Part shown: piece after piece, positions 11,518 to 63,205 of the stretch
Layout of the letters: every line of letters starts with the position of its first letter
Position numbering within the stretch: the first letter of the stretch is position 1
From: Candidatus Scalinduaceae bacterium
GTDB taxonomy: Bacteria > Planctomycetota > Brocadiia > Brocadiales > Scalinduaceae
NCBI GenBank assembly: GCA_046759445.1
Contig: JBHICG010000011.1
Location: forward strand, 1-64,000
Direction: 5' to 3'
Length of the DNA stretch: 64,000 nt
Position numbers and translations under genes: made by a program
The notes under the pieces: model-generated
What the model was told of the DNA's origin: nothing
The model's database searches: none
The model's input: the letters and a program-made list of their open reading frames with translations, nothing else

Positions 11518-11682
11518 AAGAAAATTATCATAGAATTAATATGTGTTTTTTTATTACAGAATTTAGACATTTAGCAAACCTAAAGCATGTTTTCAGACTA
11601 ACGGGCGCGAGATGAGCAGCTCGCTCCTGTTAGATTGCTATATAAAATCTTTAATAATTATGAGGTGTAATATACCGATTAA

Positions 11683-12663: not shown

Positions 12664-12714
12664 ATGACGTTAAAGTATGGATAATAAACTTTACGACCTA
12701 TTAGTTATATGTAA

Positions 12715-13392
12715 ATGTGTATGAGTTTGAAAAATCAAAAACAAACCAATGATTATTTAGAAAATCCACAGGATATAATTGAAGAGAGCTTTAGGATTAT
12801 TGATGACCTTGTTGATCTTGGCGCAATTCCGGAGACCCACAGACCAATAGTAAGAAGGGTAATCCATGCAACAGGTGACGTAGATTATGCTGATAACCTG
12901 ATAATACATCCAATGGCCGTTGAAAGGGGGGTAGATGCTATTACCAAAGGTAAATCGATAGTCACAGACGTAAATATGGTAAGGGCGGGTATCAGTGAAA
13001 AGGCCATAAACAGTTTTGGAGGAAACATAGTTTGTAAGATTGCGGATGACGCTGTTGCTAACAAGGCTAAAGATTTGAGCAAAACACGCGCTATTATGGC
13101 AATACAAGAATCTTTGACTGAAATATCAGGGGGTATAGTAGCAATAGGAAATGCTCCAACTGCCGTTTATGCGATGATTGATCTTATCCGAAGAGAAACC
13201 ATAATCCCTGCACTGATAGTAGCAGTACCAGTTGGTTTTGTAAAGGCTGCAGAATCTAAAGATGCGTTAAAGACATTTCTTGATAAAAAGAATGATCCTC
13301 AGATTCCATACATAGTAAATATTGGCAGAAAGGGTGGTAGCGCAGTTGCAGTCGCAATTATAAATGCCTTAATAGGTATTGCCAAAGAATAA
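12715..13392 (+). CDS. cbiC: Precorrin-8X methylmutase
   Basis: RRVIHATGD, TDVNMVRAGI, IGNAPTA, PVGFVKAAESK and GRKGGSAVA. Confidence 0.95.
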   Translation: MCMSLKNQKQTNDYLENPQDIIEESFRIIDDLVDLGAIPETHRPIVRRVIHATGDVDYADNLIIHPMAVERGVDAITKGKSIVTDVNMVRAGISEKAINSFGGNIVCKIADDAVANKAKDLSKTRAIMAIQESLTEISGGIVAIGNAPTAVYAMIDLIRRETIIPALIVAVPVGFVKAAESKDALKTFLDKKNDPQIPYIVNIGRKGGSAVAVAIINALIGIAKE

Positions 13393-13404
13393 AAGAGATA
13401 ATTA

Positions 13405-14496: not shown

Positions 14497-15125
14497 ATAA
14501 AATTAAAATTGTCGGCTGTGGTCCTGGCTCAAAAAAATATATGACAGGCTATGCCGTGCATCTCATAAAAGATGCCGATAGCATAATTGGTAGCAAAAGG
14601 TTACTGTCTTTATTCCCCGATGTAGAAGCCGATAAATATACACTAACTAAAAACTACAAACTACTTATAAAACAAATCGTTTCCCTGAGCAGACACAATA
14701 ATGTTGTTGTCCTTGTAAGTGGAGATCCGGGATTTTATAGTTATGCAAAACTCATAATTGATAAAGTTGGTATAGATAATTGCGAAGTTATTCCCGGTAT
14801 TAGCTCGGTTCAACTTGCATTCGCATCTATTGGAAAAACCTGGAACGATGCCTATTTCTTAAGTATGCATGGTCGAAGAAATGTTCTGTCCAAACTCATG
14901 CAAAAGGTTAAAGAGCACAAAAAAGTAGCAGTGCTAACAGACAAATCTAACAATCTGAAGCTTATTGCAAATGGATTACTAAATGAAGGGTTAAGTGACA
15001 GGAAGATATTTTTATGTGAAAATCTATCTCTAAATAAGCAAAGGATTCGCGAATTCAAAGCAACATCTATACAGAAAGCTAGAGTAAGCGGCTTGAATAT
15101 AATTATAATTTTAGATGAAAACTAA
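14478..15125 (+). CDS. cbiE: Precorrin-6y C5,15-methyltransferase subunit
   Basis: IVGCGPG, VLVSGDPGFY, IPGISSVQLAFA, SMHGR and ENLS. Confidence 0.9.
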   Translation: MAKKLVNKIKIVGCGPGSKKYMTGYAVHLIKDADSIIGSKRLLSLFPDVEADKYTLTKNYKLLIKQIVSLSRHNNVVVLVSGDPGFYSYAKLIIDKVGIDNCEVIPGISSVQLAFASIGKTWNDAYFLSMHGRRNVLSKLMQKVKEHKKVAVLTDKSNNLKLIANGLLNEGLSDRKIFLCENLSLNKQRIREFKATSIQKARVSGLNIIIILDEN

Positions 15126-15852
15126 AAAGTGTAAGAGTAATAAAACAGGACATTTCTACGGTATTGGTGTTGGTCCTGGAGATAATGAGCTGCTTACATT
15201 AAAGGCCGTTCGTATAATAAAATATGTAGACTGTATATTTGTTCCGAAAGCAGATTCAAAAGAGTCTAGTCTGGCATTAGAGATTGCTAGAGACGTGGTT
15301 ACAGGCAAAAGAATCGTTGAACAGGTCTATCCTATGGTTAGGGATAAAGCAAAACTTAATACCGCATGGTTAAAAGCCGCTAATGAGATTACATATGAAA
15401 TTGGATTGGGAAATAATGTTGCATATCTAACCATTGGTGACCCATTAACGTTTAGCACCTATTGTTACCTTCTACAACACCTCTCAAAACTAATTCCATC
15501 ACATAACATACACACAATTCCAGGAATTACGTCTTATAATGCTGCTGCATGTTTGGCCAATTTTCCACTAATAGAACAAGACGAAAAACTAGCCGTAGTT
15601 CCAATATCTAAAGACGTCAGCGAATTGCGTCCGATACTTAATAATTTTGAAACTATTGTGTTGATGAAGGTAGCAAAGAAGCTTAACGAAATAATTGAAC
15701 TATTAGAAGAGATGCGACTAATTGATCATTCCCTCTTTGCTTCATACGTTGGTTTTAAAAATGAATTTATTACTCACGACCTTAACTCATTGAGAAAAAG
15801 TGGTAAAGGATATTTATCTGTAATTATTGTCAAGAATCCAAACCATACGTAA
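15115..15852 (+). CDS. cbiL: (Cobalt-)precorrin-2 C20-methyltransferase
   Basis: YGIGVGPGDNELLTLKA, TIGDPLTFSTY, PGITSY and VLMKV. Confidence 0.92.
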   Translation: MKTKKCKSNKTGHFYGIGVGPGDNELLTLKAVRIIKYVDCIFVPKADSKESSLALEIARDVVTGKRIVEQVYPMVRDKAKLNTAWLKAANEITYEIGLGNNVAYLTIGDPLTFSTYCYLLQHLSKLIPSHNIHTIPGITSYNAAACLANFPLIEQDEKLAVVPISKDVSELRPILNNFETIVLMKVAKKLNEIIELLEEMRLIDHSLFASYVGFKNEFITHDLNSLRKSGKGYLSVIIVKNPNHT

Positions 15853-30091: not shown

Positions 30092-31663
30092 GTGGAGTGC
30101 ACAATATTGAAAAATGTTCAATTGAAAATTTGTTACGCTCAAACGACCTTAATCTACACAATGTTTATAGTACTTACATGTTCTGATATATTAGCTAGAC
30201 AAGAGGAACACAATGTAGTAGAGGATGAGACTTATTTACTAAATTATTCTTCCGATACCGTTACGTTTCCTCTTGTTTCTGATTCCCAAAATGACATTCA
30301 TTTAATTGACGTAAGGGATAAACAAATGAAGACGATTCAGGCCAGGATATATAGTAGACAGGGATTGTACGTAAAATCCTTAAATATATATAAGTCTCTT
30401 CTAAAGGATTACCCAGACGATGAAGGTATATTGATGAATTATATTGATACCCTTGTTAACTTTTCTGATTACAATCTAGCTCTTGATAAGATTAATAGTA
30501 TTCTTGCAAAAAATCCAGCTAACCTTGAGGCAAAAAAGATAAAGGCCAGAATATATTATGAACAGGAAAAATACAAATGGACTTATAATATTTACGAAAG
30601 TATTTTAAAACAAAACCGTCTGGAAAGGGGAGTCTGGTCCGACTATGCTTTTGCCAAACTAAATGCTGGCGACTGGACTGGCGCCTTGAATTATTTTTTG
30701 ATGATTTTGGAACGCGATTACGAAAACAAGACAGCATTACAAAGTATTTATGATATTCAAGAAGCACATTATCCAAGATTGGAAACTGGCTATCGATCGT
30801 TTATTCAGGCAGACGATAATATTATAAATACGAGTTCTGCTATTTATACCAGGCACATTACAAACGACACATTATTCTCAATAGATTATGATCATATCAC
30901 GGTAGATAGACCATCTGACACCAGGTTTGGAATAAATTCATTGGATTTGACAATCGATGATGCCAGGTTTCGACTTCGCCATTATTTTAGTGAAAAGTGG
31001 GAGGGGGAAATTGGCGGCGGCTTTTATTCTGGATTGGATGGGGGGTTTTCTTTCCTTACAGGTCTGGATTATAGGATATTGAAAACCGGTTGGCTACGAG
31101 CAGACTACTTTCAAAACCGCCCATGGTACGATCCCCTTGAAGCAGCCAATCTTGATGGTAGTTTCAACGAGGTAAACTTTTCTTTTGACTGGAGTTTTTC
31201 TAAAGTATGGGCATTGTTTCTTGGGGTGAAAAGATTGGACTATTTTATTGATGGTTCTAAAGACTACGGTGAAAAAAGAGGTTTTACGGGAATATTAACG
31301 CGAAAATTTGAAACGGCAAAATACATCCCAGATCTTTATCTTAGCTATTCTTTTACTCGCTCCATATTTGATTTTGAAGAGGATAATTTCAGGCCAATAG
31401 ACATGGTTAAATCAGAGGAAAGGCATGCCCTCTCATTTAACTTAGAACATTGGCTAAGTGAACGTTATGCCATTACCCTTGCAGGTAGCGTAAGTAAGGA
31501 CCTGGACAGAAAACTTGAAGCAAAGAGTTTTAACCCAGGATTTAAGATTAAGTATGGGAAACGATTTGAATTTGTCTTTAGTTATGAACTTTCTAGTGAA
31601 TCCGCAAACGTAGGTGGTGGAAAAACTGAGGCATTCAACTTTTTGTTGAAATCAAGATTATGA
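30092..31663 (+). CDS. TPR plus outer-membrane beta-barrel protein, PelB/PgaA-like export porin half
   Basis: TPRs followed by about 300 aa of amphipathic beta-strand pattern rich in Y/F/W/G/D; lies between the pelB-like and pelD-like genes. Confidence 0.65.
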   Translation: MECTILKNVQLKICYAQTTLIYTMFIVLTCSDILARQEEHNVVEDETYLLNYSSDTVTFPLVSDSQNDIHLIDVRDKQMKTIQARIYSRQGLYVKSLNIYKSLLKDYPDDEGILMNYIDTLVNFSDYNLALDKINSILAKNPANLEAKKIKARIYYEQEKYKWTYNIYESILKQNRLERGVWSDYAFAKLNAGDWTGALNYFLMILERDYENKTALQSIYDIQEAHYPRLETGYRSFIQADDNIINTSSAIYTRHITNDTLFSIDYDHITVDRPSDTRFGINSLDLTIDDARFRLRHYFSEKWEGEIGGGFYSGLDGGFSFLTGLDYRILKTGWLRADYFQNRPWYDPLEAANLDGSFNEVNFSFDWSFSKVWALFLGVKRLDYFIDGSKDYGEKRGFTGILTRKFETAKYIPDLYLSYSFTRSIFDFEEDNFRPIDMVKSEERHALSFNLEHWLSERYAITLAGSVSKDLDRKLEAKSFNPGFKIKYGKRFEFVFSYELSSESANVGGGKTEAFNFLLKSRL

Positions 31664-33153
31664 AGAAAACAATAAATATTATTAAAAACTCTATTATGTC
31701 AAATCTAACCTCTAAAATGTCAGGTCTGATAAAACCCAAGAAACCAGAAATAATAGAGATCTTGTTGGGTTTTGCCATCGTGATTGCAATAAATATCTTT
31801 TTGTTCAGGGATAATATGGGCTTTTACGGTTATAGATATCATCCCTATTGGATAATCATACTCGCAATAGCAGCTAGATATGGTTTTAGAGGAGGACTGA
31901 TGGCTGGCATCATTGGGGGGATCGTAATGCTTTCGTTGATGAAGATAAGTGAGATGGATATCACTATTAAACAACTTATGAGATATAAGTTTTTAGAAAC
32001 TCCTCTGTTCTTTATTGTAGTGGGTGCCTTCTTGGGCGAACTCAGGGAGATACAGAAAAGGCAGTTTGATAAGTTGAATGATGAGTTTAGAGAACTTCAA
32101 AAATCATTTGGTTTACTTTCAAAAAAATATAATACTGTAAGCATGGCTAAGCAGGAACTGGATACCAGGATAATTGGTCAGGAACAAACTATTTCAACAC
32201 TTTACGAATCTGCACAGGCATTAAAATCATTAAAAGAAGAAGATATATATCCGGCAGTTCTTAAGATATTGAAAAATTTTGTTTCATCTGATGAATGTTC
32301 AATTTATAAAGCTTCAGAAGACAAGCTTAAGATGATTGCCAATTTAGGATGGCGGGGGGGTAACAATCATCCTTTAGAAGTAGGTATTGATGAAGGAATT
32401 ATGGGCAAGGCCTTTTCTACAGGTAATACAGTTACCATTAACGATGTTTTAAAAGTGAAGGAAGCTCATAATTTTTCTGATTTAAATCTGATTATTTCAT
32501 CGCCTATTACTAATAGTAAGAAAGTGGTTTTAGGAGTTCTAAATATTGAGAAGATGCCTTTTGTGAAATTCAATCCACAATCTATAAAGATGGCTTCGCT
32601 TTTAGCTGACTGGTGTGGGTCTGCTTTAGAGAACGCAAAGATGTATAAAGAAACAAAGGACAAGAATATAGCTGATGAAATAACCGGCGCCTATACTTAT
32701 GACTATTTATGTAAACGGGTTGAAGAGGAATTTCAAAAAGCACGTCGCTATAAGTTTGTTTTTGGAATATTAGCTTTTGAAATAGCTGAATATGATTTAA
32801 TTCCAGAAATGAAAAAGCAAGAACTTTTACCCGTATTCAATACCATTTTTAGAAATGTCGCCAGAAAAACTGACCTCTTGTTCGTCGGTAATTTTCCAGG
32901 AATATTTATATTTCTTTTTCCTTTTACACCCCTGAAGGGTATTAATGTTGTGAAAAACAAATTAATCAACGCGATTAATGAATTTAAATTTAGACCCTAT
33001 CAAGATGAAAGCAGATTACTGGAAGTTTACGCAGGAACGGCAGAATTTAATGATGAATTAGAAACGTACACAGAGTTGATACAGATGGCTATTGAAGATA
33101 TGAATAGGGAGAAAAGTTCAAATAATGCCCAGCAATTAGCTGCCACATTATGA
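31660..33153 (+). CDS. pelD: PelD-like c-di-GMP receptor (TM-coiled coil-GAF-degenerate GGDEF)
   Basis: PYW..ILAIAARYG TM block, GAF domain, DEITGAY, I-site RxxD (RKTD) with no GGDEF motif. Confidence 0.8.
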   Translation: MKKTINIIKNSIMSNLTSKMSGLIKPKKPEIIEILLGFAIVIAINIFLFRDNMGFYGYRYHPYWIIILAIAARYGFRGGLMAGIIGGIVMLSLMKISEMDITIKQLMRYKFLETPLFFIVVGAFLGELREIQKRQFDKLNDEFRELQKSFGLLSKKYNTVSMAKQELDTRIIGQEQTISTLYESAQALKSLKEEDIYPAVLKILKNFVSSDECSIYKASEDKLKMIANLGWRGGNNHPLEVGIDEGIMGKAFSTGNTVTINDVLKVKEAHNFSDLNLIISSPITNSKKVVLGVLNIEKMPFVKFNPQSIKMASLLADWCGSALENAKMYKETKDKNIADEITGAYTYDYLCKRVEEEFQKARRYKFVFGILAFEIAEYDLIPEMKKQELLPVFNTIFRNVARKTDLLFVGNFPGIFIFLFPFTPLKGINVVKNKLINAINEFKFRPYQDESRLLEVYAGTAEFNDELETYTELIQMAIEDMNREKSSNNAQQLAATL

Positions 33154-33263
33154 TCCCAGAAAATCCATAAGTTTCACTAACTAAAAAATATTTTGAAAAT
33201 ATGAATCTAGAATTTGTTTGGGAGTTAGTACCTTAGTCAAAGGACGCAAAATACTTACTATAA

Positions 33264-33404
33264 CCTAAATTGAGCGATTTTTGTAGCCGCAACCTTCAGG
33301 TTGCGTAACTTACATGAAATTGTCATAAACTCATCAGATGATGGGAAACGCAGGCTAAAGCCAGCGGCTACATTGACATGCAATATAAAATCGCTCAATT
33401 TAGG
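33264..33404. mobile_element. MITE-like element, copy 1 (141 bp)
   Basis: 18-bp TIR CCTAAATTGAGCGATTTT / AAAATCGCTCAATTTAGG; flanking 5-bp direct repeat TATAA (33259-63 and 33405-09); internal inverted GTAG-type REP pair. Confidence 0.85.
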
Positions 33405-33423
33405 TATAAATAAAACTAAAAGA

Positions 33424-34491
33424 ATGATGATAAGATTTCTTAAGCTATTGTTGTGTATTTTTTTGTGGATTCTCGCCGTTTTTTGTGAAGTGATAGTGGG
33501 GGGTATTTTTCTTTATTCAGATCAATACTCGATAAGGAATCTATTTCTTGCTTTACCCATACATTGTGTGGCATCCATCTTATCATTTCTGATTTTTCGG
33601 ATTTATTCAACAAAAGAATTCAATGAACTTAAATTTTATAGTTACCTATGTGGTTTGATGACATTCTTCTTACCTTTGATAGGTATTCTAGGTATTACCA
33701 TTAATTATTTATTAGTAAAATTTATATTAAAGAAGAAAGGTTACTTTACAACTTCTGATGACCCACTTGAGAATATCGACGAAGATTTGCACCTGTTTGA
33801 AGACATATCTGATACTAACACACTTTTAAAAGAAGAGACGAACATTGAACCTATTATGGATATCCTCAATGGAGACGATCCAGCGCTTAAGAGGGGAGCA
33901 ATAAATCTTCTAAGACAAATGGGTAGTAAGGAGGCTATACATTTATTAAAAAAAAACATTTCTGATTCTAATGATGAGGTTCGCTTTTATACCAGTGCAG
34001 CGCTTAAAAAGCTTAATGATGCTTACATACAAGAGCTGAAAAAGGCCAAAGAGAAGACAGAGGTAGAGAAACCTTCAGCGTCCCACTTTCAGAAATTGGG
34101 AGAAGTATGCAAAAAGTACGCAGAAAGCGGTCTATGCGACCAGAATGCAAGAGACTATTATCTCGGACTTGCAAAGAATGCCTTCATTGAAACACTTGAT
34201 CTTGATCCTGAAAATATTGAGATTACAACAAGCCTTGGATATGTATGTATGGAATTGAAAGAGTACGAAGAAGCTGAAAAATATTTCAAAAAGGCCACAA
34301 AAATAAAACCGGATCATGCTGATGCATTACTATGGCTTTGCCAATTATATTATGAAAAATGGGATTTGAAAGCCTTGGTTGAAAATCTTCAAGGAATGGA
34401 TCCAATATGCCATCAGGAAGCTAAGGATCCATACAATAGAATGCTTTTTAATTTTTGGACTAAACAGGATAAGGTATACTCAGATGGCTAA
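33424..34491 (+). CDS. pelE: PelE-like protein (TM, HEAT, TPR); start likely ATG 33424
   Basis: TM region with FFLPLIGILG, HEAT repeat with DSNDEVRFY, YAESGL and a TPR; lies between pelD and pelF. The ORF-track start at 33301 falls inside the MITE. Confidence 0.75.
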   Translation: MMIRFLKLLLCIFLWILAVFCEVIVGGIFLYSDQYSIRNLFLALPIHCVASILSFLIFRIYSTKEFNELKFYSYLCGLMTFFLPLIGILGITINYLLVKFILKKKGYFTTSDDPLENIDEDLHLFEDISDTNTLLKEETNIEPIMDILNGDDPALKRGAINLLRQMGSKEAIHLLKKNISDSNDEVRFYTSAALKKLNDAYIQELKKAKEKTEVEKPSASHFQKLGEVCKKYAESGLCDQNARDYYLGLAKNAFIETLDLDPENIEITTSLGYVCMELKEYEEAEKYFKKATKIKPDHADALLWLCQLYYEKWDLKALVENLQGMDPICHQEAKDPYNRMLFNFWTKQDKVYSDG

Positions 34492-36016
34492 TAAAATATA
34501 CGATGTTTGTCTTCTCTTGGAGGGTTCATATCCCTTTGTGGCAGGAGGGGTCTCCAGATGGATGCACTTTTTAATAAAATCTCTTCCAGAGATTAATTTT
34601 ATAGCGGTATGTATTTCTACTAGCTCAAAAGAAAAATTACACTATAAATACGAAATACCTCAAAATCTTAGCGACATTAAGATAGTTTACCTTTCTGATT
34701 ACAATCCTGGCAGGAAGAAAAAATCAAGAAAACAAATACGCGTCAAACGGATAAATATTTTAAGAGAATTTCATCATAGACTCTTTAAAAAGGATTTATC
34801 CTCGTTTAATGGGGTTCTGTCTATGTTCAAATCTTCTCATAAAGATAGAATAACACTACATGATCTGATTTTTAGCAAAGAGTCATGGGGTCTTCTATTA
34901 GACTTTTATAGGCCAGGTAAAAACAATTTTTCTTTTATTGACTACTTTTGGACATTCCGTGCCTCTCATCTTTCTCTTTTCAATATTCTGAATACCGAGA
35001 TTCCCAGGGCAAAAGTTTATCATACCATATCGACGGGTTATGCAGGATTTATGGGTGCAGTTGCTAGTCATACATACAAAAGGCCACTTATTCTCACTGA
35101 ACATGGAATATATACCAAGGAAAGGAAGATAGATATTGCTCAGGCAGAATGGATCTATGCTACAGTTGGAAAGAAGATGAAGGTAGAGAGGGATCTTGGC
35201 ACCTTACAGAATCTTTGGATACGCATATTTGAGGCAATGGGAAAATTTACTTATAAAGCAGCAGAAAGGATTTACACTCTTTATGAAGGGAACCGCCAAC
35301 AGCAGATAACGGATGGAGCAGACCCTGACAAAACTTTTGTAATACCAAATGGAATAGATATAGAGAGGTATAATGAATTATTCAACAATCGTTGCTCAAA
35401 AAACACACAAAAGGGAGAAAAATCTCTTTTTTCGATAGGTTTTGTGGGAAGGGTAGTTCCCATTAAGGATGTGAAAACACTTATAAGGGCATGTAAGATT
35501 GTTTCTCTACGTGTGCCTAATATAAAGATATACATTATAGGGCCAACCGAGGAAAATCCAAAATATTATCAAGAATGCCTTGAACTATGTCGTTTCATGG
35601 GGCTCAAAGGAGTTTTAGAGTTTATGGGCAAGGCTGATACTATGAAGTTCTATTCCTTTTTAGACCTAATCGTTCTCACAAGCGTTAGTGAGGCCCAGCC
35701 TCTTGTTATATTGGAAGCTAATTGTGCCGGCATCCCTGTAGTGGCATCAGATGTAGGGGCTTGTCAGGAATTGTTAGAAGGAAATACAAAAGAGGACAAA
35801 GCATTGGGTGCATCAGGCATAATAACCAGGGTTGCTGACCCTGCTGATACGGCAAATGGCATTGTAACCATTCTCTCCAATGATGAGTTAAGGAAGAAGA
35901 TGTCTATTGCAGGTCACAAGCGAGTTGAAACATTTTATCGTGAAAGCGATCTGAACAATAAGTATTTGTCAATATACAAAGAATTAATGGACTGTGACAA
36001 CCTCGGAGATTTCTAA
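34484..36016 (+). CDS. pelF: GT4 glycosyltransferase PelF
   Basis: DVCLLLEGSYPFVAGGVSRW, HTISTGYAG, LTEHGIYTKER, GRVVPIKDVKT and SVSEAQPLVILEA. Confidence 0.93.
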   Translation: MANKIYDVCLLLEGSYPFVAGGVSRWMHFLIKSLPEINFIAVCISTSSKEKLHYKYEIPQNLSDIKIVYLSDYNPGRKKKSRKQIRVKRINILREFHHRLFKKDLSSFNGVLSMFKSSHKDRITLHDLIFSKESWGLLLDFYRPGKNNFSFIDYFWTFRASHLSLFNILNTEIPRAKVYHTISTGYAGFMGAVASHTYKRPLILTEHGIYTKERKIDIAQAEWIYATVGKKMKVERDLGTLQNLWIRIFEAMGKFTYKAAERIYTLYEGNRQQQITDGADPDKTFVIPNGIDIERYNELFNNRCSKNTQKGEKSLFSIGFVGRVVPIKDVKTLIRACKIVSLRVPNIKIYIIGPTEENPKYYQECLELCRFMGLKGVLEFMGKADTMKFYSFLDLIVLTSVSEAQPLVILEANCAGIPVVASDVGACQELLEGNTKEDKALGASGIITRVADPADTANGIVTILSNDELRKKMSIAGHKRVETFYRESDLNNKYLSIYKELMDCDNLGDF

Positions 36017-36018
36017 AT

Positions 36019-37389
36019 ATGGCAGGTATAGGATTTGAGCTTAAAAGAATATTAAAGCGAGATACTTTTTCAAGTGAATTTAAGGCCTATCTTTATGCAG
36101 CCCTGGTCTCTTCAGGTCCATGGCTAATGTCTGTAATATGCCTCGGAATACTTGGGATACTAAGAGGAACGGGTTTAAGCGGTAAAGAACACGAGATATT
36201 TAGGTCTACAATTATTTATACTTATGCCTTTTCAATTATATATGTGGGCTCCATTCAACTTGTCGCAACAAGGTATCTGGCAGACCAGCTTTACTTAAAG
36301 AATGAAAAGATTACGCTGTCAACTTTTTTTACTTGTACGGTACTCATCCTTGTAGGTGGGGGGCTTTTTGCAGGACTGTTTTATTATTCTTTTGATATAT
36401 CTATACTACACAAACTAAGTGGTGTAGTCCTATTCATGCTAGTTAGCATGATTTGGGTGTGCATGATCTTTCTATCTGTAATTAAAGACTATATCAGTAT
36501 TGTATATGCCTTTGCCGGAGGCACATTAACGAGCATATTCGCAGCCCCATATTTGGGGAAGATTTTAGGGACTGAAGGATATCTGTTGGGGTTTATTTTG
36601 GGACAGGCAATTATCTTCTTCTGGTTACTTTCGAAATTACTAATTGAATTTCCTGTATCAGGATTATGGAACAAAGACCTCTTTCTGTATTTTAGAAAAT
36701 ATTGGGATCTTTTAGTAATCGGTTTTATCTATAACCTGGCCATATGGTCAGATAAAATAGTTTTTTGGTTTGCCCCTGATTCTCGATTGATTATACCCTG
36801 GTTCAGGACTCACGATTTTTATGAGGGAGCTGTGTTTTATTCTTATCTTACCATAATACCAACTCTTGCTCTCTTTATGGTTAACATCGAAACAAAATTT
36901 TATGACCATTATAGGCATTATTATGGAAAGATTGTGGGAAAACAATGCCTTACAAGCATTATAAATGAGAAAAACTTAATGGTTTTAATGCTTAAGGATA
37001 GTCTGAGAATGGTTTTTATCTTTCAGGGAGCTATCACAAGTGTATGTCTTGTATTCGCCCCATATCTCGTTGAAATGGCACATCTCATTCCCGTCCAAAT
37101 TCCCATATTCAGGATATGCTTGATAGGATCTTTTCTTCAGGTACTTTTGGCTATGAATATAATAATTCTCTTTTATTTTGACTTAAGAAAACATGTTATG
37201 GCAGTAACCCTGTTGTTTTTGTTTTCTAATGTGGTGTTTAGTATGTTAACTACAAAATTGGGGGTTCAATTTTATGGATATGGATATACCTACGCCTGTT
37301 TTATATCCCTCATATATGCCTTTCATTTACTAGATATAAGTTTAAAAGACCTTGAGTATATTACATTTGCAAAGCAACCAGTTTCATAA
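36019..37389 (+). CDS. pelG: Pel exopolysaccharide transporter PelG
   Basis: MAGIGFELKR N-terminus, SSGPW, TRYLAD and YNLAIWSDK; about 12 TM helices. Confidence 0.95.
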   Translation: MAGIGFELKRILKRDTFSSEFKAYLYAALVSSGPWLMSVICLGILGILRGTGLSGKEHEIFRSTIIYTYAFSIIYVGSIQLVATRYLADQLYLKNEKITLSTFFTCTVLILVGGGLFAGLFYYSFDISILHKLSGVVLFMLVSMIWVCMIFLSVIKDYISIVYAFAGGTLTSIFAAPYLGKILGTEGYLLGFILGQAIIFFWLLSKLLIEFPVSGLWNKDLFLYFRKYWDLLVIGFIYNLAIWSDKIVFWFAPDSRLIIPWFRTHDFYEGAVFYSYLTIIPTLALFMVNIETKFYDHYRHYYGKIVGKQCLTSIINEKNLMVLMLKDSLRMVFIFQGAITSVCLVFAPYLVEMAHLIPVQIPIFRICLIGSFLQVLLAMNIIILFYFDLRKHVMAVTLLFLFSNVVFSMLTTKLGVQFYGYGYTYACFISLIYAFHLLDISLKDLEYITFAKQPVS

Positions 37390-42268: not shown

Positions 42269-42982
42269 CTATTTAAATGGTTCTATTATCTCTACATCAT
42301 CAGGTAAATCCAGGACGAATGACTTCTCCGGTATCTCTGTGTTAATGCGAATGTTGCTCAATTCAAACGTATTTACGATCTCACCTTCACTCTCAAATAG
42401 CTGAAATTGTACTGGTAACCAGAGCCCTTCCTTAATCCACAACAAAGTCCTTGAATAATCGGAGTCAAAGGACTCTTTGGGAATCAGTTCTATGTGGAAT
42501 AATGTGCCCTCTTCCGTTGAAATATCGTCTAGTAGGGTAACGTCATAGCTTTCCTTTATCTTTTCTACATTATATTCATAACCAAGCTCGAATATGTCCG
42601 CTCTCTGTGGTGCGTTCATATCGCCGTTCATCTTATATTTTTCTACCTGTTTTTCTTCAGGATAGTAGATCCAGACGTATGTACCATCAATGACGTTAAT
42701 TTCGTTTCTTGGAGGAAAAAAGTTAAGATTAAGTTTCTTTGGCTTCTTATATTTTAATTTCCCGTCAGAGACCTCTTCTGAGTCGAGGAGGGAAATAACC
42801 CTTGAGTATTTTATGTCTGCCTCCATGGTCTTAAGCTGTGCATTGGCCTCTTCCACCTTTTTTAATATTGCTTCCAGTCTATCATTACCAACATTGGTTG
42901 AACAAAATAGATTAGTCGGTATGGATACTAATAAGCAAAAGGTAAAAGTAACAATAAAAATCGTGTAAATGGTTTTATTCAT
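42269..42982 (-). CDS. LolA-like outer-membrane lipoprotein carrier/sorting protein
   Basis: Signal peptide, GKLKYKKPKKL, VIDGTYVWIYYPEEKQV and ELIPK. Confidence 0.8.
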   Translation of the reverse strand: MNKTIYTIFIVTFTFCLLVSIPTNLFCSTNVGNDRLEAILKKVEEANAQLKTMEADIKYSRVISLLDSEEVSDGKLKYKKPKKLNLNFFPPRNEINVIDGTYVWIYYPEEKQVEKYKMNGDMNAPQRADIFELGYEYNVEKIKESYDVTLLDDISTEEGTLFHIELIPKESFDSDYSRTLLWIKEGLWLPVQFQLFESEGEIVNTFELSNIRINTEIPEKSFVLDLPDDVEIIEPFK

Positions 42983-43404
42983 TTTAAATATTTTAGGATA
43001 TAGTCACAGTACTTAACATACTGGCTTATTGCATCACCTACTTTTTTATAGATCACTACTTTGTTCAAGTCATTATACTCATGGACGATTACGTTTCTCA
43101 ATCCTGCACTCCTTGAAATATCTTCGCCAAAGTCTTTTGGTAAAATGTCTAAATCACCCAGGATTGTGAATGTTTCACGGTATGTTTTTGGAGCTTCTAT
43201 GTCAGGTCCGGCTAGTTCATAAATAAGATGTTCGTTAATATCAATAGCCCTGCCAATTGTTACCATTAAGATATTCTTAAGTGCTGCAAAATTTATAAAA
43301 TCTTCTGATATTTGATCAATGGAGAGGTCAGAAAATACACCTAATCTTTTTAAGTCGCGAGTAATTAAGTTTATCTTTTCTACAATGAATTCTCTATCAA
43401 TCAA
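42979..43404 (-). CDS. HEPN (DUF86) ribonuclease toxin, HepT-like
   Basis: Rx4HxY motif GLRNVIVHEY; downstream of an MNT gene. Confidence 0.85.
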   Translation of the reverse strand: MIDREFIVEKINLITRDLKRLGVFSDLSIDQISEDFINFAALKNILMVTIGRAIDINEHLIYELAGPDIEAPKTYRETFTILGDLDILPKDFGEDISRSAGLRNVIVHEYNDLNKVVIYKKVGDAISQYVKYCDYILKYLK

Positions 43405-43415
43405 AAAAAATGTGG

Positions 43416-43829
43416 TTAGATTTTAAAACTTTGCACTCGTTTTTTAGTTAAGGTTTCTTTTAATCTTAATAAATCCTTGCTGTCATGGTAATCACGGAAG
43501 GCATAGGCCTTAAAGATGTTATAATCATAACTTCTGCCATAAAGGAGGATCGCATTTCGCATTACCTGATAACGAAATAGTGCGTCAGTACTATGTAAGG
43601 ATTTAACATCAATTTCTTTAACTTCAAAGATTTGTGCAAATTCATTATGCAAACCAATTAATTCCTCAGTAGATATTGGCCTAATTCCCAAAACAGCAAT
43701 GTCGATATCACTATCTTTACTGATCTTTCCTCGCGCTTGCGAACCGTACAGGAGTACCAATGAAAGATTGTGCTTTTTAGCAAGTTTCCCTATTTCTGGT
43801 TTTAAATTTTCCATGTCTTTCTTTACCAT
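43416..43829 (-). CDS. Minimal nucleotidyltransferase antitoxin, MntA-like
   Basis: LYGSQARG...SDIDIAV and IDVKSL. Confidence 0.85.
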   Translation of the reverse strand: MVKKDMENLKPEIGKLAKKHNLSLVLLYGSQARGKISKDSDIDIAVLGIRPISTEELIGLHNEFAQIFEVKEIDVKSLHSTDALFRYQVMRNAILLYGRSYDYNIFKAYAFRDYHDSKDLLRLKETLTKKRVQSFKI

Positions 43830-44373: not shown

Positions 44374-45243
44374 ATGACAAATACATTTGCTATCATTGGA
44401 GGAAGTGAAGCTTACAATCTGTTGATGTCTGATAAATTAAAGGAGGAACGTATTGGCCAGATCAAGACTCCTTTTGGAGCGTCTGAGGCAATATTCAAAA
44501 TAACTGGCGATAAAAAAAGCTTTTTGTTTCTTTCACGACATGGTGAGAAAGGGTATTCCAAAACGGCACCGTATGTTAACTACCGGGCTAATATATATGC
44601 GCTAAAAGAACTTAAAGTAAAACAGGTAATATCCTGGTCAGGTCCGGGCGCCATTAATCCTAAATATGAGATTGGCCAATATGTTGTTGTTGATGATTTG
44701 ATTGATGAAACTAAAAACAGAGAATATACCTTTTACGAAAACAAGGGAATAGGCTTCATTAGGCAAAGTCCCGTATTCTGCCCGGGTTTGCGGCAATGCA
44801 TTATCGACACAATGAAATCACTTAAATTTAATTATGCAGGACATGGCACTTATGTATGTACACAGGGCCCCCGACTCGAGACCCCTGCTGAAATAAAAAA
44901 GTACATCTCTTTCGGATCTGACCTGATTGGAATGACACTGGTACCGGAGGTATTTCTTGCGAAGGAACTTGAGATGTGCTATGCCTCTATATGTTACGTT
45001 ACCAATTATGCAGAAGGTATTACGGATAGTGAATATCGGCCGGGTGAACTATTTGAAGGACTCTCATCAGATAAGGATAGAAAAGCCGTCAAAGATAGTG
45101 TTAGTAATTTTCCGGCTATTATGGAGAGGCTGGCAAGTAATATTGGCAAGCACAGCATAAATTGTAAATGTCAATTGTCAATGGAGCGTTATAGAAAGGA
45201 AGGCATAATAGGAGATGATTGGCATGAGTGGGTAACTCTATAA
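44374..45243 (+). CDS. mtnP: MTAP-family purine nucleoside phosphorylase (probably 6-oxopurine/MTI-specific)
   Basis: IIGGS, TPFG, LSRHG, VNYRANIYAL, QGPRLETPAE, GMTLVPE and VTNYA. Confidence 0.8.
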   Translation: MTNTFAIIGGSEAYNLLMSDKLKEERIGQIKTPFGASEAIFKITGDKKSFLFLSRHGEKGYSKTAPYVNYRANIYALKELKVKQVISWSGPGAINPKYEIGQYVVVDDLIDETKNREYTFYENKGIGFIRQSPVFCPGLRQCIIDTMKSLKFNYAGHGTYVCTQGPRLETPAEIKKYISFGSDLIGMTLVPEVFLAKELEMCYASICYVTNYAEGITDSEYRPGELFEGLSSDKDRKAVKDSVSNFPAIMERLASNIGKHSINCKCQLSMERYRKEGIIGDDWHEWVTL

Positions 45244-45388
45244 TATTACCCTTTCTAATAATTTTGTAACTATTTAATGTATTGTAGAAAATCCTTTAAA
45301 TTGAGTTATATGGCTATGCCGCCATTTAGTCATGCGCTTCGCTGTCATTAGGTAACAGGCTATCCGGGAATTGGGAATAAGTTTTATT

Positions 45389-45468
45389 GTCATTCTAAAC
45401 TTGTTTCAGTATCTGTAACTACGAGTTGTTAATGAGAACATAAGATTTCTGATCAAGTCCGAAATGAC
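45389..45468. repeat. Degenerate GTCATT...AATGAC palindromic REP-like element
   Basis: GTCATTCTAAACTTGTTTCAGTATCT and AGATTTCTGATCAAGTCCGAAATGAC form imperfect inverted arms. Confidence 0.6.
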
Positions 45469-45495
45469 ATTTCTCAGACATCCTGAAAAAGTGTT

Positions 45496-48023
<2,528 letters not shown>

Positions 48024-51803: not shown

Positions 51804-52907
51804 ATGCAAATAACACACAATACAATTGATACACGTTTATGCGATATATACGAAAAAGTCATGGGTGGAAAACGCCTCGATTATGAGGACGGTATAAAAT
51901 TATTTGAGTCCACTGAAATTCTTGATCTGGGCAATCTTGCAAACATAATAAGAGAAAGAAAGAATAAAAACAACGGTTATTATATTATAAACCGACACAT
52001 AAATTATACTAATATTTGTAAAAACAGATGCAAGTTTTGTGCATTTAGTCGTAACAAGGAGGATAACGGCGCATACCTTTTGAGCACTGAAGAAATATTA
52101 GATAAGGCTTCACAAGTTGTTTATAATGGAGCAACTGAATTACACATTGTTGGAGGCCTGCATCCAGAATTGGGAATAGATTATTACATTAAAATGATAA
52201 ATTTACTTCACGAGCGTTTTCCTGATGTACATTTACAGGCATTCACTGCCGTTGAGATCGCTCACTTTGCAGACATATCTGGAATAACAATACATGAAAC
52301 ACTAAAGGAGCTGAAAAATGCTGGTTTAGGTTCACTTCCTGGGGGCGGAGCTGAGGTTTTTTCACCAAGTATCAGAGAAGAACTTTGTCCAGAAAAACTT
52401 AGTGGTGAAGATTGGTTGAAAACCATGCGTGAAGCGCATTATTTAGGTTTAAGAAGCAATGCGACCATGCTATACGGTCACATAGAAAAAAATAAAGATA
52501 GAGTAGCCCATTTGCTAAAACTACGCGAATTACAAGATGAGACAAACGGATTCATGTCCTTTATCCCTCTTGCATTTCACCCAAAAAACACAGACCTACA
52601 GAACTTCTCCAATACAGCAGGAATGTTAGATTTAAAAATGCTCGCAATAGGGAGATTAATGCTGGATAATTTTGATCACATAAAGGCATTCTGGATAATG
52701 CTTGGTATTAAGCTAGCTCAAGTGTCGCTTAGTTTTGGAGTTGATGACATAGACGGAACGGTGGCAGAAGAGAAAATTACTCATTCAGCAGGTGCAGAAA
52801 CACCAGAGGCGTTAACGGTTGATGAAATTGAGTCATTAATAAGAGAAACGGGGCATGACCCTGTTGAGAGAGACACTCTTTACAATCGAATAACTAGAGG
52901 TAATTAA
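51804..52907 (+). CDS. mqnE: Aminofutalosine synthase (radical SAM, CofH/MqnE family)
   Basis: NRHINYTNICKNRCKFCAF, ELHIVGGLHP, AFTAVEI, HIKAFWIM and EEKITHSAGA. Confidence 0.88.
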   Translation: MQITHNTIDTRLCDIYEKVMGGKRLDYEDGIKLFESTEILDLGNLANIIRERKNKNNGYYIINRHINYTNICKNRCKFCAFSRNKEDNGAYLLSTEEILDKASQVVYNGATELHIVGGLHPELGIDYYIKMINLLHERFPDVHLQAFTAVEIAHFADISGITIHETLKELKNAGLGSLPGGGAEVFSPSIREELCPEKLSGEDWLKTMREAHYLGLRSNATMLYGHIEKNKDRVAHLLKLRELQDETNGFMSFIPLAFHPKNTDLQNFSNTAGMLDLKMLAIGRLMLDNFDHIKAFWIMLGIKLAQVSLSFGVDDIDGTVAEEKITHSAGAETPEALTVDEIESLIRETGHDPVERDTLYNRITRGN

Positions 52908-59232: not shown

Positions 59233-59616
59233 ATGATCAAGCAATTCACCATTCAAACGTCAAGGCGTAACGAGTTCATCGACATCACGGCACAGATTCA
59301 AGACCTGGTAGAAGAGGTTTCGGAAGGTGTGGTCACCGTATTTGTCCCCCACACCACAACTGCAGTCACCATTAATGAGAATGCCGACCCGGCCGTTCCC
59401 CGGGACATATTAAAAAAGCTTGAGGATTTAATCCCTCAGCGGGGCAACTATACTCACATGGAAGGTAATAGCGACGCCCATATTAAGGCGTCTCTGCTCG
59501 GTTCGTCCGTAAGAGTTATCATCAAAGACAGTCAACTGTTATTAGGGACCTGGCAGGCAATTTTCTTTTGTGAGTTCGACGGACCCAGGACAAGGAAGTT
59601 CTATGTTCAGATTTAA
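59233..59616 (+). CDS. YjbQ/UPF0047 family protein
   Basis: PHTTTAVTINENADP, HMEGNSDAHIKA and LGTWQAIFFCEFDGPR. Confidence 0.92.
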   Translation: MIKQFTIQTSRRNEFIDITAQIQDLVEEVSEGVVTVFVPHTTTAVTINENADPAVPRDILKKLEDLIPQRGNYTHMEGNSDAHIKASLLGSSVRVIIKDSQLLLGTWQAIFFCEFDGPRTRKFYVQI

Positions 59617-60252
59617 TTTGATTCTGTCTTAAGCCTCAGAGAACACAGAGTGCACAGAGAAAGATAAAGCATAAGACAAAAACATTTAGACAGGATATAC
59701 AGGATGAACAAAAATTAACACGGAAATGTACGGAAAGAAAAAACTTTAACTTAGAAATCGTTATTAGTTATTCGTCAATCGTAAATCCCAAATCGTAAAT
59801 CTCCTCATCTTTCACACTCCCATTCTCAATTTCTCCCTATGGTTCGACTTGCTCACCATTTAGCTTAATACATATCGCTACGCTCGATACTGAGCTAAGT
59901 ACCGAGTAAACCGAGGTGTTGAGGGGGTCGGCTGAGGCGCGCTCTAAGCCATTGCAGAAGTACTCCCTGCTGCTTAACTAACCCCCCTCTTTTTTCTTGA
60001 TTAATGAAGAGGCCAATAGTCATTTGGAAAATTTTAACTCAATCTCTTTTCAATCAGGTCATTATTCTCATAAAATAGTTGATATAACACCACAAAAATG
60101 CATATTACATAGATTTAAAAAAGGAGATAAAGTTTTGCACCTAAGAATAAGAGAACAGAAAAAGCTGATTGTATCTGTTATTATGAGGTATAATGAAAAG
60201 CAAATATAATAAGAGCGTCTTTAGACAATAATATTCTAAAACAGACTAAATC

Positions 60253-61680
60253 GTGAATATCCTGCTAATCATTACCAATCGTTACCGCGGACCGATTCCA
60301 GTTATTCCTCTTGGTGCGTGCCTGGTTGCAGAGTCCTGTGAACGAGCAGGTCATCAAGTTCAAATGTTGGATTTAATGTTTGAACGGGATCCATTATGTA
60401 CCTTGAGTTCAGTAATCGATAGAACACAACCGGATGTTGTCGGACTTTCCTTACGCAATATTGACAATAATGACATGCAACATCCTGCTGTGTTCTATAA
60501 GGATTTGACGTTACTCATAGATACCATTCGCAGAAAGACGTGTGCAACGGTTGTCATCGGTGGCGCTGCTGTTGGTGTAATGCCGGAAGCATTACTCCGT
60601 TTTACAGGGGCAGATTGGGCAATCTTGGGAGATGGAGAAATTGTTTTTCCAAAATTATTAGCGATGCTATCAAGGGATGAGGTACCGAAAGATATCCCCG
60701 GTGTAGCCTGGATTGACGATACTGTTTTTAGAATAAATACTGGTTATAGCGAACGTTTTTCTGGTAACAGTTTGTTACCGGATTTTCACCGATGGATAAA
60801 AGTACCCTCTTATCTCTCCAGATTTTCCACTGTGCCGGTTCAAACGAAACTGGGGTGCCATTTTAAATGTATTTATTGTACCTATAGAAAGATCGAAGGC
60901 CATGATTATCGCTTGTGCGATACTCATACTATAGCAGAGGTGATTATGGATCTTGCGAAAAGTGGGATGAGAGATATTGAATTTGTTGATAATGTATTTA
61001 ATTCGCCCTATGACCATGCAATGGCTTTATGTGATACAATTGCAAAGTTTCTAACAAATATTCGTCTTCAAACCGTTGAGTTAAATCCGCTTTTTGTAGA
61101 CGATAAACTTATTGGAACAATGGAACAGGCAGGTTTTGTTGGTATTGGTATTACGGTTGAGAGTGCAGCCGACCCTGTTCTTGAACGTTTGAAAAAAGGT
61201 TTCACCGCAAGAGACGTCTATAGGACCTCCGAGGTCATTCAGCACCACAAGATACCGTGTCTCTGGATATTCATGTTCGGTGGGCCGGGTGAAACCGAAG
61301 AGACGGTACAAGAAACCCTCCGCTTTGCGGAAAAGCGTATCAGTCAAAGAGATGTTGCACTTTTTATGATAGGAATACGCATATATCCCGGAACTGAACT
61401 TGAAAACATTGCAAGAGCAGAAGGTATGTTGACCCTGTCTCCCAATGAAATGCTTCAACCGGTATTTTACTTATCTCCAGCCATTAATCTGGAATGGCTA
61501 CTGAAAAAGATTCACAATAGTATGGCAACACACATGAATTTTATGAATCCAAATGCCATTGGTCTTCCATTTCTGCCTGCAATGAATTTTATGGGATACT
61601 GGTTGGGAGTAAAGCCTCCTCTCTGGAAACATACACGTTACATTCGAAGGGGGCTCAGATTGTTAGGGATGGATGTATGA
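60253..61680 (+). CDS. Cobalamin-binding radical SAM enzyme (resembles the lipid-biosynthesis B12/rSAM family TIGR04072)
   Basis: N-terminal B12 domain (PVIPLG...PDVVGLSLRNID...VIGGAA), CxxxCxxC CHFKCIYC, FVDNVFN and GGPGET...GIRIYPGT. Confidence 0.85.
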   Translation: MNILLIITNRYRGPIPVIPLGACLVAESCERAGHQVQMLDLMFERDPLCTLSSVIDRTQPDVVGLSLRNIDNNDMQHPAVFYKDLTLLIDTIRRKTCATVVIGGAAVGVMPEALLRFTGADWAILGDGEIVFPKLLAMLSRDEVPKDIPGVAWIDDTVFRINTGYSERFSGNSLLPDFHRWIKVPSYLSRFSTVPVQTKLGCHFKCIYCTYRKIEGHDYRLCDTHTIAEVIMDLAKSGMRDIEFVDNVFNSPYDHAMALCDTIAKFLTNIRLQTVELNPLFVDDKLIGTMEQAGFVGIGITVESAADPVLERLKKGFTARDVYRTSEVIQHHKIPCLWIFMFGGPGETEETVQETLRFAEKRISQRDVALFMIGIRIYPGTELENIARAEGMLTLSPNEMLQPVFYLSPAINLEWLLKKIHNSMATHMNFMNPNAIGLPFLPAMNFMGYWLGVKPPLWKHTRYIRRGLRLLGMDV

Positions 61681-61746
61681 TCTTACCGGGACAGATGATA
61701 TAGTAAACCAGAACAAAAATCTATTGAAGAAAGTGTATTCCTGCAC

Positions 61747-62802
61747 ATGAAGAATGAAAATGTATCTATTGCCTCTCTCGCTGTTGCCACTCCCCCTTAT
61801 GTGACAAAACAGTCAGAAGCAGAAGCGTTTCTCACAAATCATTACTCGGATAAATTAGGGCAAGAGAATATGGCAAAAATGCGTAAGATCTTTGCTCATC
61901 CGAGTGTTTTAAAAAGACATATTGCAGTGGAAGACCTTGAGTGCCTTGTGCATGAAGACCCGGATAGTCGCATTGCCCGTTTTACGCACTGGGCCGTGGA
62001 ACTTTCTTCTAAGGCGATTGATAATGCTTTAGTTCAGGTGGGTATAACAACAGATGACGTTTCGGGATTGGTGGTGAATACGTGCACGGGTTACATTTGT
62101 CCTGGTATTTCAACGTATCTTATAGAAAAACTTGGCTTATCCAATCAGATACGAACACATGACCTGGTAGGAAGCGGTTGTGGTGGTGCGATTCCGAATT
62201 TACAGGTTTGCAGGGATATGTTACAAGAGAATAACGATGAAGTGATCGTGAGTGTTTCAGTAGAGATCTGTAGTGCAACATTTCAGATGGCAAATGATTT
62301 AAGCCTGGTTGTTTCAAATGCAATCTTTGCTGATGGTGCAGCGGCATCCGTACTATGGAGTCGTCCTGGTAAATTGAAATTGGTTGCCTCTGCGAGCCGA
62401 TGTGACCCTCAACATCGTGAAGATATACGATACATATACAGAAATGGGCAATTGCATAACCAGCTTTCCTTACAATTACCAGAGTTCGCCAGTAAGACGG
62501 TTGCAAAGGTCGTGATGGATCTGTTAACACCCAAAGGGCTTAAACTGGAAGACATTAAACACTGGGCATTCCATCCGGGAGGGGAAAATGTGATTAATGC
62601 AGTCAGAGACGAACTGAGAATTTCTGAAACAAAGATGCAGGCAACCCGTGATGTTCTGGCCAGATATGGAAATATGTCATCTCCGACAGTCTTGTTTGTG
62701 TTACGAGAGATTTTAGATAAGGGTATTGCTTCCGGAGATTGGTGTGTAATAGTAGCCTTCGGTGCCGGTTTAAGTGCTCATGGATTTCTCCTGAAGGCAT
62801 AG
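61747..62802 (+). CDS. Type III polyketide synthase (chalcone synthase-like)
   Basis: Catalytic Cys (GSGCGGA), His (FHPGG) and Asn (YGNMSS); also VEICS, AIFADGA and AFGAG. Confidence 0.93.
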   Translation: MKNENVSIASLAVATPPYVTKQSEAEAFLTNHYSDKLGQENMAKMRKIFAHPSVLKRHIAVEDLECLVHEDPDSRIARFTHWAVELSSKAIDNALVQVGITTDDVSGLVVNTCTGYICPGISTYLIEKLGLSNQIRTHDLVGSGCGGAIPNLQVCRDMLQENNDEVIVSVSVEICSATFQMANDLSLVVSNAIFADGAAASVLWSRPGKLKLVASASRCDPQHREDIRYIYRNGQLHNQLSLQLPEFASKTVAKVVMDLLTPKGLKLEDIKHWAFHPGGENVINAVRDELRISETKMQATRDVLARYGNMSSPTVLFVLREILDKGIASGDWCVIVAFGAGLSAHGFLLKA

Positions 62803-63205
62803 CCTGACCTGTCTATCATTCCCTATATACCCTACCCCTTCTCCCCATTCCCCCAGGCAATTTTCAATATAAAATTGCTTAAGCTATTTTGTTAATGTAT
62901 TTCGTAGAATTGCACTAAAATAGCCATCTTTTCTTTCTTGACTTTGATGATGTGTGGATTTATTATTCCATTTCATTTCAACCAGCATAAGCATATGCCG
63001 CATATTGAAATTAAGTTTATGATTACAAAGACGTAAATACATGAACTTTCTTACCAAAAAATTAGGTGTTTGCCCATGTTATCAAATAAAGTGTAATGAG
63101 ACAAAATAGGAACAACAACACCAAGTAATATAATAGACCCTATTTTTGTTCCTAGAATTCTAGTTATAACAGTAATATAAAAGTAATTTTAAATGAGAAC
63201 ATAAA

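Follow-up and report, generated by a model that had tools for sequence, protein, structure and literature searches.

A TsrM-related radical SAM gene paired with a type III polyketide synthase gene in a presumed anammox bacterium

Bacterial type III polyketide synthases (PKSs) encoded beside a methylating enzyme are among the closest described relatives of the gene pair reported here. The pair is composed of a cobalamin-binding radical S-adenosylmethionine (SAM) enzyme gene (rSAM) and a type III PKS gene, and is located in the first 64,000 nucleotides of contig JBHICG010000011.1 from a Candidatus Scalinduaceae bacterium (assembly GCA_046759445.1); this whole stretch is called the window below. 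The two genes form a real, well-conserved two-gene biosynthetic unit. Judged from sequence, it is a tailoring cluster of the type III PKS kind in which the partner, a TsrM-like cobalamin enzyme, is new, and no characterised member was found in the literature searched; a search of full-text literature, with most subscription papers outside its scope, found no paper on the rSAM–PKS pair. The lipid chemistry of anammox bacteria, which have a central role in the nitrogen cycle, has been explained only in part. As the pair encodes two small soluble enzymes, its function is testable without growing the host.

In hidABC of picocyanobacteria and the planctomycetal methyltransferase–FAD–PKS operon, the type III PKS gene stands last, behind the methylating partner, and the same order is found in the pair. 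Its partner, however, is a cobalamin rSAM, and the PRK06202-type methyltransferase and the FAD enzyme are absent at the locus and were not found in the genome. According to Milke et al. (2024, PMC10896814), PKSs of the planctomycete operon make C15–C17 alkylresorcinols, and addition of the methyltransferase and FAD genes of Gimesia maris introduced a single methyl group, which is probably located on a ring carbon; HidA is described there as O-methylating. The window PKS is ~31% identical to a planctomycete operon PKS and has Tyr256/Asn265, in chalcone synthase (CHS) numbering, in place of Trp/Met. BpsAB, SrsABC and DquAB share the two-gene logic of PKS and methylase with the pair, and DquA, which makes long-chain pyrones, is presented as the first type III PKS from an anaerobe to have been characterised (PMC9827899). 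Unlike these systems, the pair has no ICMT-type O-methyltransferase, and the ICMT-linked PKSs (locus L120) are 26% identical to the window PKS and belong to another clade; a search of the window's genome with the ICMT protein of L120 gave no match. The malonyl-primed enzymes DpgA and RppA/THNS resemble the window PKS in having Tyr at CHS position 256 and Cys at 194, but identity is 30%, position 265 is Asn instead of Phe, and the pair is not accompanied by dpgBCD.

For the rSAM, the closest solved structure is TsrM (PDB 6WTE/6WTF), which has the same domain order and an Arg under the cobalamin. In contrast to TsrM, the rSAM lacks E273 and E236, is only 22–23% identical and is linked with a PKS rather than with a peptide cluster. 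The nearest hidden Markov model (HMM) is that of TIGR04072, a family of lipid-biosynthesis B12/rSAM proteins that shares the motif G-x-S-x-R-N-x-D, and a TIGR04072-type island common to Kuenenia and Desulfotalea was described by Rattray et al. (2009, PMC2649909). The window protein scores below the family cut-off, is ~30% identical to members above it, falls into a separate clade and has another gene context.

Conservation and linkage of the two genes

Both genes are intact and co-oriented, with the PKS gene 3' of the rSAM gene (Table 1). The open reading frames (ORFs), the domains and the Cys-His-Asn triad all confirm an earlier note on this DNA, which had described an intact rSAM gene followed after 66 bp by an intact type III PKS gene.

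Table 1 Positions of the two genes and of their diagnostic residues in the window
Feature	Position	Strand	Details
Cobalamin-binding rSAM gene, TsrM/TIGR04072-related, own subfamily	60253..61680	+	475 aa, GTG start
G64-x-S66-x-R68 cobalamin lower-face motif	60442..60456	+	corresponds to TsrM G65-x-T67-x-R69; R68 in 77/77 orthologues
CxxxCxxC [4Fe-4S] motif C202/C206/C209	60856..60879	+	invariant in 77/77 orthologues
D246-N247-V248 at GGE-motif position	60988..60996	+	Val248 at cluster-ligating E273 of TsrM
Spacer between rSAM and PKS genes	61681..61746	.	66 bp, no terminator-like site found
Type III PKS gene, Asn265 clade (CHS numbering)	61747..62802	+	351 aa, ATG start
Catalytic Cys145 (CHS C164)	62179..62181	+	alignment to CHS
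Tyr229 at CHS G256, cavity/starter position	62431..62433	+	Tyr in 62/62 orthologues
Asn238 replacing CHS F265 gatekeeper, clade marker	62458..62460	+	Asn in 62/62 orthologues
Catalytic His276 (CHS H303)	62572..62574	+	alignment to CHS
Catalytic Asn309 (CHS N336)	62671..62673	+	alignment to CHS

A GTDB scan gave 193 relatives of the rSAM, the closest named ones being Ca. Scalindua and Scalinduaceae records (75–81%), which suggests that the host is an anammox bacterium of the Scalinduaceae type. Among the best 80 of these 193 loci, the rSAM gene is directly followed by a type III PKS gene in 71, by a contig edge in two and by other genes in seven; for the latter seven, a PKS orthologue lies elsewhere in four genomes, one genome gave no match, and two hold only a PKS of 27–31% identity. 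Within the order, 92 genomes were counted after dropping seven rSAM paralogue matches (37–39%) and two distant PKS matches (29–30%). The rSAM gene is present in 52 of them and the PKS gene in 52; 51 genomes carry both, 39 neither and two a single gene, and 49 of the 52 rSAM genes adjoin the PKS gene. The reverse test in Nitrospirota found the PKS in 38 of 251 sampled genomes, with the rSAM directly upstream in 29 of 30 fetched loci, the remaining one beginning at a contig edge. In the phylum of genome G094 (401 genomes), a divergent PKS query matched ten genomes, five of which hold rSAM–PKS pairs. In 301 Planctomycetota genomes, the PKS matches included nine from outside the order, none with an rSAM within 1.5 kb. 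Since kin are not independent, all these counts are descriptions rather than significance tests. They bear out the two-gene biosynthetic unit that the earlier note had proposed (51/92 genomes with both genes, 71/80 loci adjacent, 29/30 in Nitrospirota).

The fixed gene order extends over at least three phyla, and in some loci (L054) the stop and start codons of the two genes overlap. The type III PKS with its fixed B12 partner is present in named records of Kuenenia, Brocadia, Jettenia and Scalindua. Milke et al. describe type III PKS genes as rarer in Ca. Brocadiae (PMC10896814), and two papers on ladderane genes report that no PKS was found in Kuenenia. It is very unlikely that the two genes are merely co-located and co-regulated and act on different substrates. 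Such independence would suit the genomes in which the rSAM is found with only a distant PKS (L069, L080) or with none (L081), and the one with a PKS without rSAM (G760). The near-perfect co-occurrence, the fixed order, the overlapping codons and the retention of both genes after the operon was split argue for a common pathway.

Several observations concern single copies of the pair. On a 4-kb contig of a Neomarinimicrobiota metagenome-assembled genome (L006:1335-2759), which is possibly misbinned, the protein is 96% identical and the order yjbQ–rSAM–PKS is kept. The rSAM copies at L051:10001-12000, L042 and G066:C1:4116677-4118101 are frameshifted or contain a stop, by assembly error or decay; in L051, the rSAM frame reads into the PKS, giving an apparent 615-aa fusion. 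Close relatives of either gene are absent from the plasmid collection searched, where the best matches are 33% and 26%.

In the window, the nearest upstream gene is yjbQ, at a distance of 636 bp, and the PKS gene is followed by a 223-aa ORF with no family assigned. No tailoring gene lies next to the pair at the locus, as had been noted earlier. The yjbQ gene itself (window 59233-59616) has 47% GC and 56% GC at third codon positions, far above its neighbours. Across the loci the flanking genes vary; the only recurrent ones, WrbA (just upstream in 17/80 loci) and a small cupredoxin, belong to Brocadiaceae-type records. No WrbA was found in the window's genome. A c-di-GMP-I riboswitch precedes the WrbA–cupredoxin–rSAM–PKS run in two Brocadia records (L031:8329-8450 and L063:8032-8153; two of seven related loci scanned), and none was found in the 64-kb window. 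In three Scalinduaceae loci (L008:13719-14885, L012:13016-14184 and L042), the pair is followed by a PAPS-reductase-like gene and a small ferritin-like gene with a weak COQ7 match.

Two further observations of the earlier note are correct and carry little weight. The pair is indeed GC-richer, its GC content being 42.5% where the genome has 37.0%. Of the 1395 ORFs of at least 300 aa in the genome, however, 12.7% are equal or higher; GC was rejected as a mark of recent transfer because the value falls in the ordinary range. Part of B12 synthesis is likewise encoded in the window, at 6621-15852 (cobQ, cbiB, cobB, chelatase, precorrin-8X mutase, cbiD, cbiE and cbiL). A tie between these genes and the pair was rejected, as they are ~45 kb apart and do not belong to the shared neighbours.

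A promoter and terminator scan gave 8 promoter-like sites versus 10.8 expected and 3 terminator-like sites versus 2.4 expected. No Rfam family was matched within the window, and the 636-bp upstream gap gave only short chance-level matches in a repeat scan and genome search. Contigs of two metatranscriptome runs from one study, and of a third run that is probably DNA, extend over both genes with a likeness of mostly 90–95%, although contigs cannot show transcription, strand or a single transcript; the sole listed contig bridging rSAM and PKS comes from the third run. In run X1, two contigs join the flanks across the pair (window 59801-63008), skipping 3206 and 3035 bases. These joins hint weakly at an empty site in relatives, their sides being just 27 and 24 bases.

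Features of the two proteins

The rSAM contains a Pfam B12-binding domain (residues 17–135) and a Radical_SAM domain, both above cut-off. It thus combines the N-terminal B12-binding domain and the CX3CX2C domain that define class I cobalamin-dependent radical SAM enzymes. Of the two assignments considered earlier, B12-binding therefore held, whereas TIGR04072 membership did not: the HMM ranking is TIGR04072 with 311.7 bits (cut-off 360), BzaD TIGR04385 with 163 (450) and TsrM TIGR04428 with 115.2 (500), and no cut-off was reached. In PMC12931638, TsrM is classed as a proven and BzaD as a predicted sp2 methylase.

The predicted rSAM model has a pLDDT of 86.6 and is weak at residues 70–78 and 215–217. 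TsrM is its best Foldseek match (E 1.7e-28, TM 0.82) and is also the best rSAM match by sequence. In VIA, TsrM again ranks first (Z 34.3, root-mean-square deviation (rmsd) 2.5, 450 aligned) with OxsB next (Z 26.1), and the model is far nearer TsrM than OxsB, TokK, CysS or MgmA. TsrM is described as methylating an sp2 carbon via polar chemistry, its Arg69 being thought to favour polar methyl transfer (PMC9204698). Radical methylases are reported to have a hydrophobic residue instead of Arg at this lower-face position (PMC12931638). The G-x-S-x-R-N-x-D motif is common to all TIGR04072-related paralogues, so that it marks this group and not the rSAM subfamily alone. At the two Glu positions of TsrM, the rSAM has Val248 (in 77/77 orthologues, E273 position) and Tyr211 (E236 position). 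In a FastTree phylogeny, in which the long TsrM branch is unreliably placed, the PKS-linked rSAMs form their own clade (24 rows, support 98), and members over the TIGR04072 cut-off branch separately.

The PKS contains both Chal_sti_synt domains, PF00195 and PF02797, above cut-off. At CHS positions it has Cys132, Cys194, Thr197 (Thr178 of the protein), Phe215, Tyr256, Asn265 and Ser338, all but Cys132 being invariant in 62 orthologues. The model is close to PKS11 (Z 47.1, rmsd 1.8, 341 aligned), and the long-chain enzymes PKS11 and CylI take the top structural ranks, with a lead of just 1–3 Z units. Five residues after the catalytic His (His+5), 59 of 62 orthologues have Lys or Arg, which PMC9827899 proposes to be indicative of loading from an acyl carrier protein (ACP). 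In a quick tree, the Asn265 clade comprises 40 rows (SH-aLRT 99), composed of a mostly rSAM-linked subclade of 31 rows and sister lineages. DpgA and the Trp256 enzymes fall outside it, although long branches such as DpgA and L054 are unreliably placed in this tree. P0241, the top match in the representative search, was set aside as irrelevant, being a 4818-aa repeat of distant PKS domains with at most 27% identity.

Neighbours of related PKS genes and the proposed product

The sister lineages in the Asn265 clade adjoin a PRK06202-type methyltransferase gene and an FAD oxidoreductase or peptidase-U32 gene, some of them with ACP and ketosynthase genes, and their methyltransferase is homologous to that of the planctomycete three-gene operon. 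This exchange of partners was followed in metagenome loci, the best 80 of 536 relatives ranked against a divergent clade member, many of whose contigs are short. The 80 loci hold the rSAM in 27 cases, methyltransferase/FAD/U32 partners in 34 and both in two. All 27 rSAM loci are among the 48 with at least 45% identity, where ten have methyltransferase/FAD/U32 partners (two of these with both) and 13 neither; the 32 loci below 45% have no rSAM, 24 with methyltransferase/FAD/U32 partners and eight with neither. The two kinds of partner thus mostly exclude each other. ACP and ketosynthase genes stand beside clade members at L083, L134, L150, L153, L205 and L209. The fullest arrangement is L083, where methyltransferase, U32, ACP, ketosynthase, rSAM and PKS genes run in one direction. 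By tblastn, the window's genome lacks partners of the class I methyltransferase, FAD enzyme and ACP/ketosynthase types, and holds one U32 of another kind only. The hidABC-type methyltransferase family NF004851 has matches in 3 of the 92 genomes of the order.

A divergent peptidase-U32 gene (~405 aa) recurs in type III PKS clusters, in many cases at the place taken by an FAD monooxygenase gene in other loci (L083:6331-12671, L205, L209, L217, L225, L226, L229, L237, L240, L255, L269, L155, L166 and L171). The encoded protein is a candidate O2-independent hydroxylase for alkylresorcinols, and a search of full-text literature found nothing on U32 coupled with type III PKS. These sister clusters suggest that there is a U32 family with polyketide substrates. 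In addition, a second B12 rSAM, BchE/HpnR-like, lies head-on downstream of the PKS at L213:7157-8572, L225, L226 and L229, and a 44% relative is found on contig C7 of the window's genome.

The best reading of the pair, held with moderate confidence, is an acyl-ACP-primed alkylresorcinol-type lipid whose ring is C-methylated by the cobalamin enzyme. The alkylresorcinol-type, acyl-ACP-primed part is suggested by the planctomycete results of Milke et al. together with the ACP and ketosynthase neighbours. In such a pathway, the type III PKS would extend a fatty acyl starter, probably ACP-bound and presumably supplied by the host fatty-acid synthase, with malonyl-CoA to give an alkylresorcinol-type phenolic lipid; a pyrone ring instead of resorcinol is possible. 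SAM would reload methylcobalamin on the rSAM, and the methyl group would pass to the electron-rich ring by polar transfer as in TsrM, with Arg68 favouring this step. A TsrM-like enzyme would be a natural C-methylase for so electron-rich a ring, and the product may be a membrane lipid or a redox-active precursor. The earlier note had proposed a radically methylated or cyclised phenolic lipid; a methylated phenolic lipid is still the most likely product, while radical methylation or cyclisation has become doubtful, since the protein is closest to the non-radical methylase TsrM and has the same Arg.

Several points weigh against the acyl-ACP-primed, ring-methylated lipid. The PKS is ~30% identical to any solved or annotated PKS, its best HMM is that of DpgA (NF042429, 166.3 against a cut-off of 425), and its Tyr and Thr at CHS positions 256 and 197 are reminiscent of the small-starter enzymes RppA and DpgA. 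At His+5 the window PKS has Asn, and the malonyl-CoA-using DpgA has Lys. In the rSAM, replacement of the residues at TsrM E273 and E236 could allow SAM to bind the cluster, so that radical chemistry would be possible. Moreover, L083, L213 and L243 hold the rSAM together with a class I methyltransferase, so the rSAM is not a simple substitute and can supply an extra step instead of taking the place of one. The genome also has a methylmalonyl-CoA mutase. The argument that the host lacks methylmalonyl-CoA was consequently dropped, and a methylase acting after the PKS is not required by a missing extender.

The PKS residues bear on a further alternative, in which a malonyl- or acetyl-CoA-primed PKS makes a small phenol of the phloroglucinol, orcinol/orsellinate or dihydroxyphenylacetate type, which is then C-methylated by the rSAM to a non-lipid product. 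We consider this unlikely. Tyr229 matches Y224 of RppA, which is described as selecting malonyl-CoA (PMC6274091; RppA was compared by this published description), Thr178 and an R-Y motif are in common with DpgA, and most loci are without ACP or ligase. However, the DpgA score is far below its cut-off, no dpgB/C/D neighbours are found near the pair, and DpgA falls outside the Asn265 clade. The same Tyr/Phe256–Asn265 enzymes are found with ACP, ketosynthase and alkylresorcinol-type tailoring genes, and the long-chain enzymes come first by structure, if by a small lead.

The exchange of partners bears on the chemistry of the rSAM. On the same phenolic-lipid scaffold, it might instead carry out radical chemistry, namely O2-independent ring hydroxylation in place of U32/FAD, alkyl-chain methylation or ring formation, which we regard as rather unlikely. 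The CxxxCxxC motif is intact with the TsrM-type Glu ligand missing, and U32 is found in 0 of the 27 rSAM loci among the 80 metagenome loci. At one similar site U32–PKS (L225, L226 and L229) alternates with rSAM–PKS (L213 and L243), the U32 members UbiU/UbiV are described as O2-independent hydroxylases (PMC6747719), and the recurrent upstream neighbour WrbA is an NAD(P)H:quinone oxidoreductase. Against these stand L083, which has U32 and rSAM in a single run, the much closer structural likeness to TsrM than to the other enzymes compared, the Arg at the lower face where radical methylases are hydrophobic, and the finding of no WrbA in the window's genome.

A broader and speculative proposal, to which we give little credence, takes the pair as the minimal form of an undescribed O2-free phenolic-lipid/alkylquinone pathway family, with the six-gene run of L083 as its fullest form. 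Here the Glu-less TsrM-like enzyme would do chemistry new to its class, O2-independent ring hydroxylation or C–C coupling, and the anammox PKS would use unusual acyl-ACPs to make an aromatic membrane lipid or electron carrier not reported so far.

The pair would provide a new metabolite of anammox bacteria and Nitrospirota, possibly a biomarker. It would also give the large group of TIGR04072-related proteins a first substrate and show whether the Arg of TsrM is by itself predictive of polar methyl transfer.

The ladderane question and other features of the window

TIGR04072 is named rSAM_ladder_B12, and the earlier note had mentioned that TIGR04072-like members have been proposed for unusual anammox lipid chemistry. 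The pair is not essential to anammox or ladderanes. Both genes are missing in all 14 genomes of family f3 (61–98% complete), yet hydrazine synthase alpha is present in the three f3 genomes tested; it is also present in G054, which is 100% complete and lacks the pair, and the control genome G047 gave no hydrazine synthase match. The window's genome contains two clusters with the published ladderane-candidate gene order (from the table of PMC4790861), on contigs C60 and C25, whose rSAMs are 19–21% identical to the window rSAM and without the Arg motif. The window rSAM is not beside FabF/FabB and ACP synthase or amxACP/FabZ genes, the location of the Kuste2803/Kuste3608 type. Members over the TIGR04072 cut-off occur in 10 of the 92 genomes and are ~30% identical to the window rSAM; their context is mostly a CoA ligase-like gene, a second rSAM, FabG, ACP and FabZ, which is not seen at the window rSAM, and the PKS-adjacent orthologues reach at most ~342 bits. 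That the pair belongs to ladderane lipid synthesis would fit its best rSAM HMM and its frequency in anammox genomes. It is nonetheless extremely improbable in view of the hydrazine-synthase-positive genomes without the pair, its occurrence in non-anammox Nitrospirota and the other rSAMs used by the ladderane-type clusters, and the ladderane link was not upheld.

Other TIGR04072-related proteins have different surroundings. In several family f4 genomes, rSAM genes of a third clade, 38% identical to the window rSAM, immediately follow genes for multiheme cytochromes c (L098, L099, L100, L101, L105 and L109; rSAM at ~1500-2900 or reverse). In a genome of the same genus, a TIGR04072-like rSAM (351 bits, L096:1498-2913) is located between aminotransferase-like and cytochrome b6-like genes.

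The remainder of the window holds several unrelated groups of genes. Heme-copper oxidase genes (ctaB and subunits I–III) lie at 478-5977 on the - strand of this anammox genome, with 43–48% GC, above the window average. Pel-like exopolysaccharide genes are found at 30092-37389, with pelF over cut-off, pelG, and GAF and TPR genes. The segments 42979-43829 (- strand), 44374-46740 and 51804-52907 hold a HepT/MntA type VII toxin–antitoxin pair and futalosine-pathway genes, including a deaminase-like gene and mqnE over cut-off.

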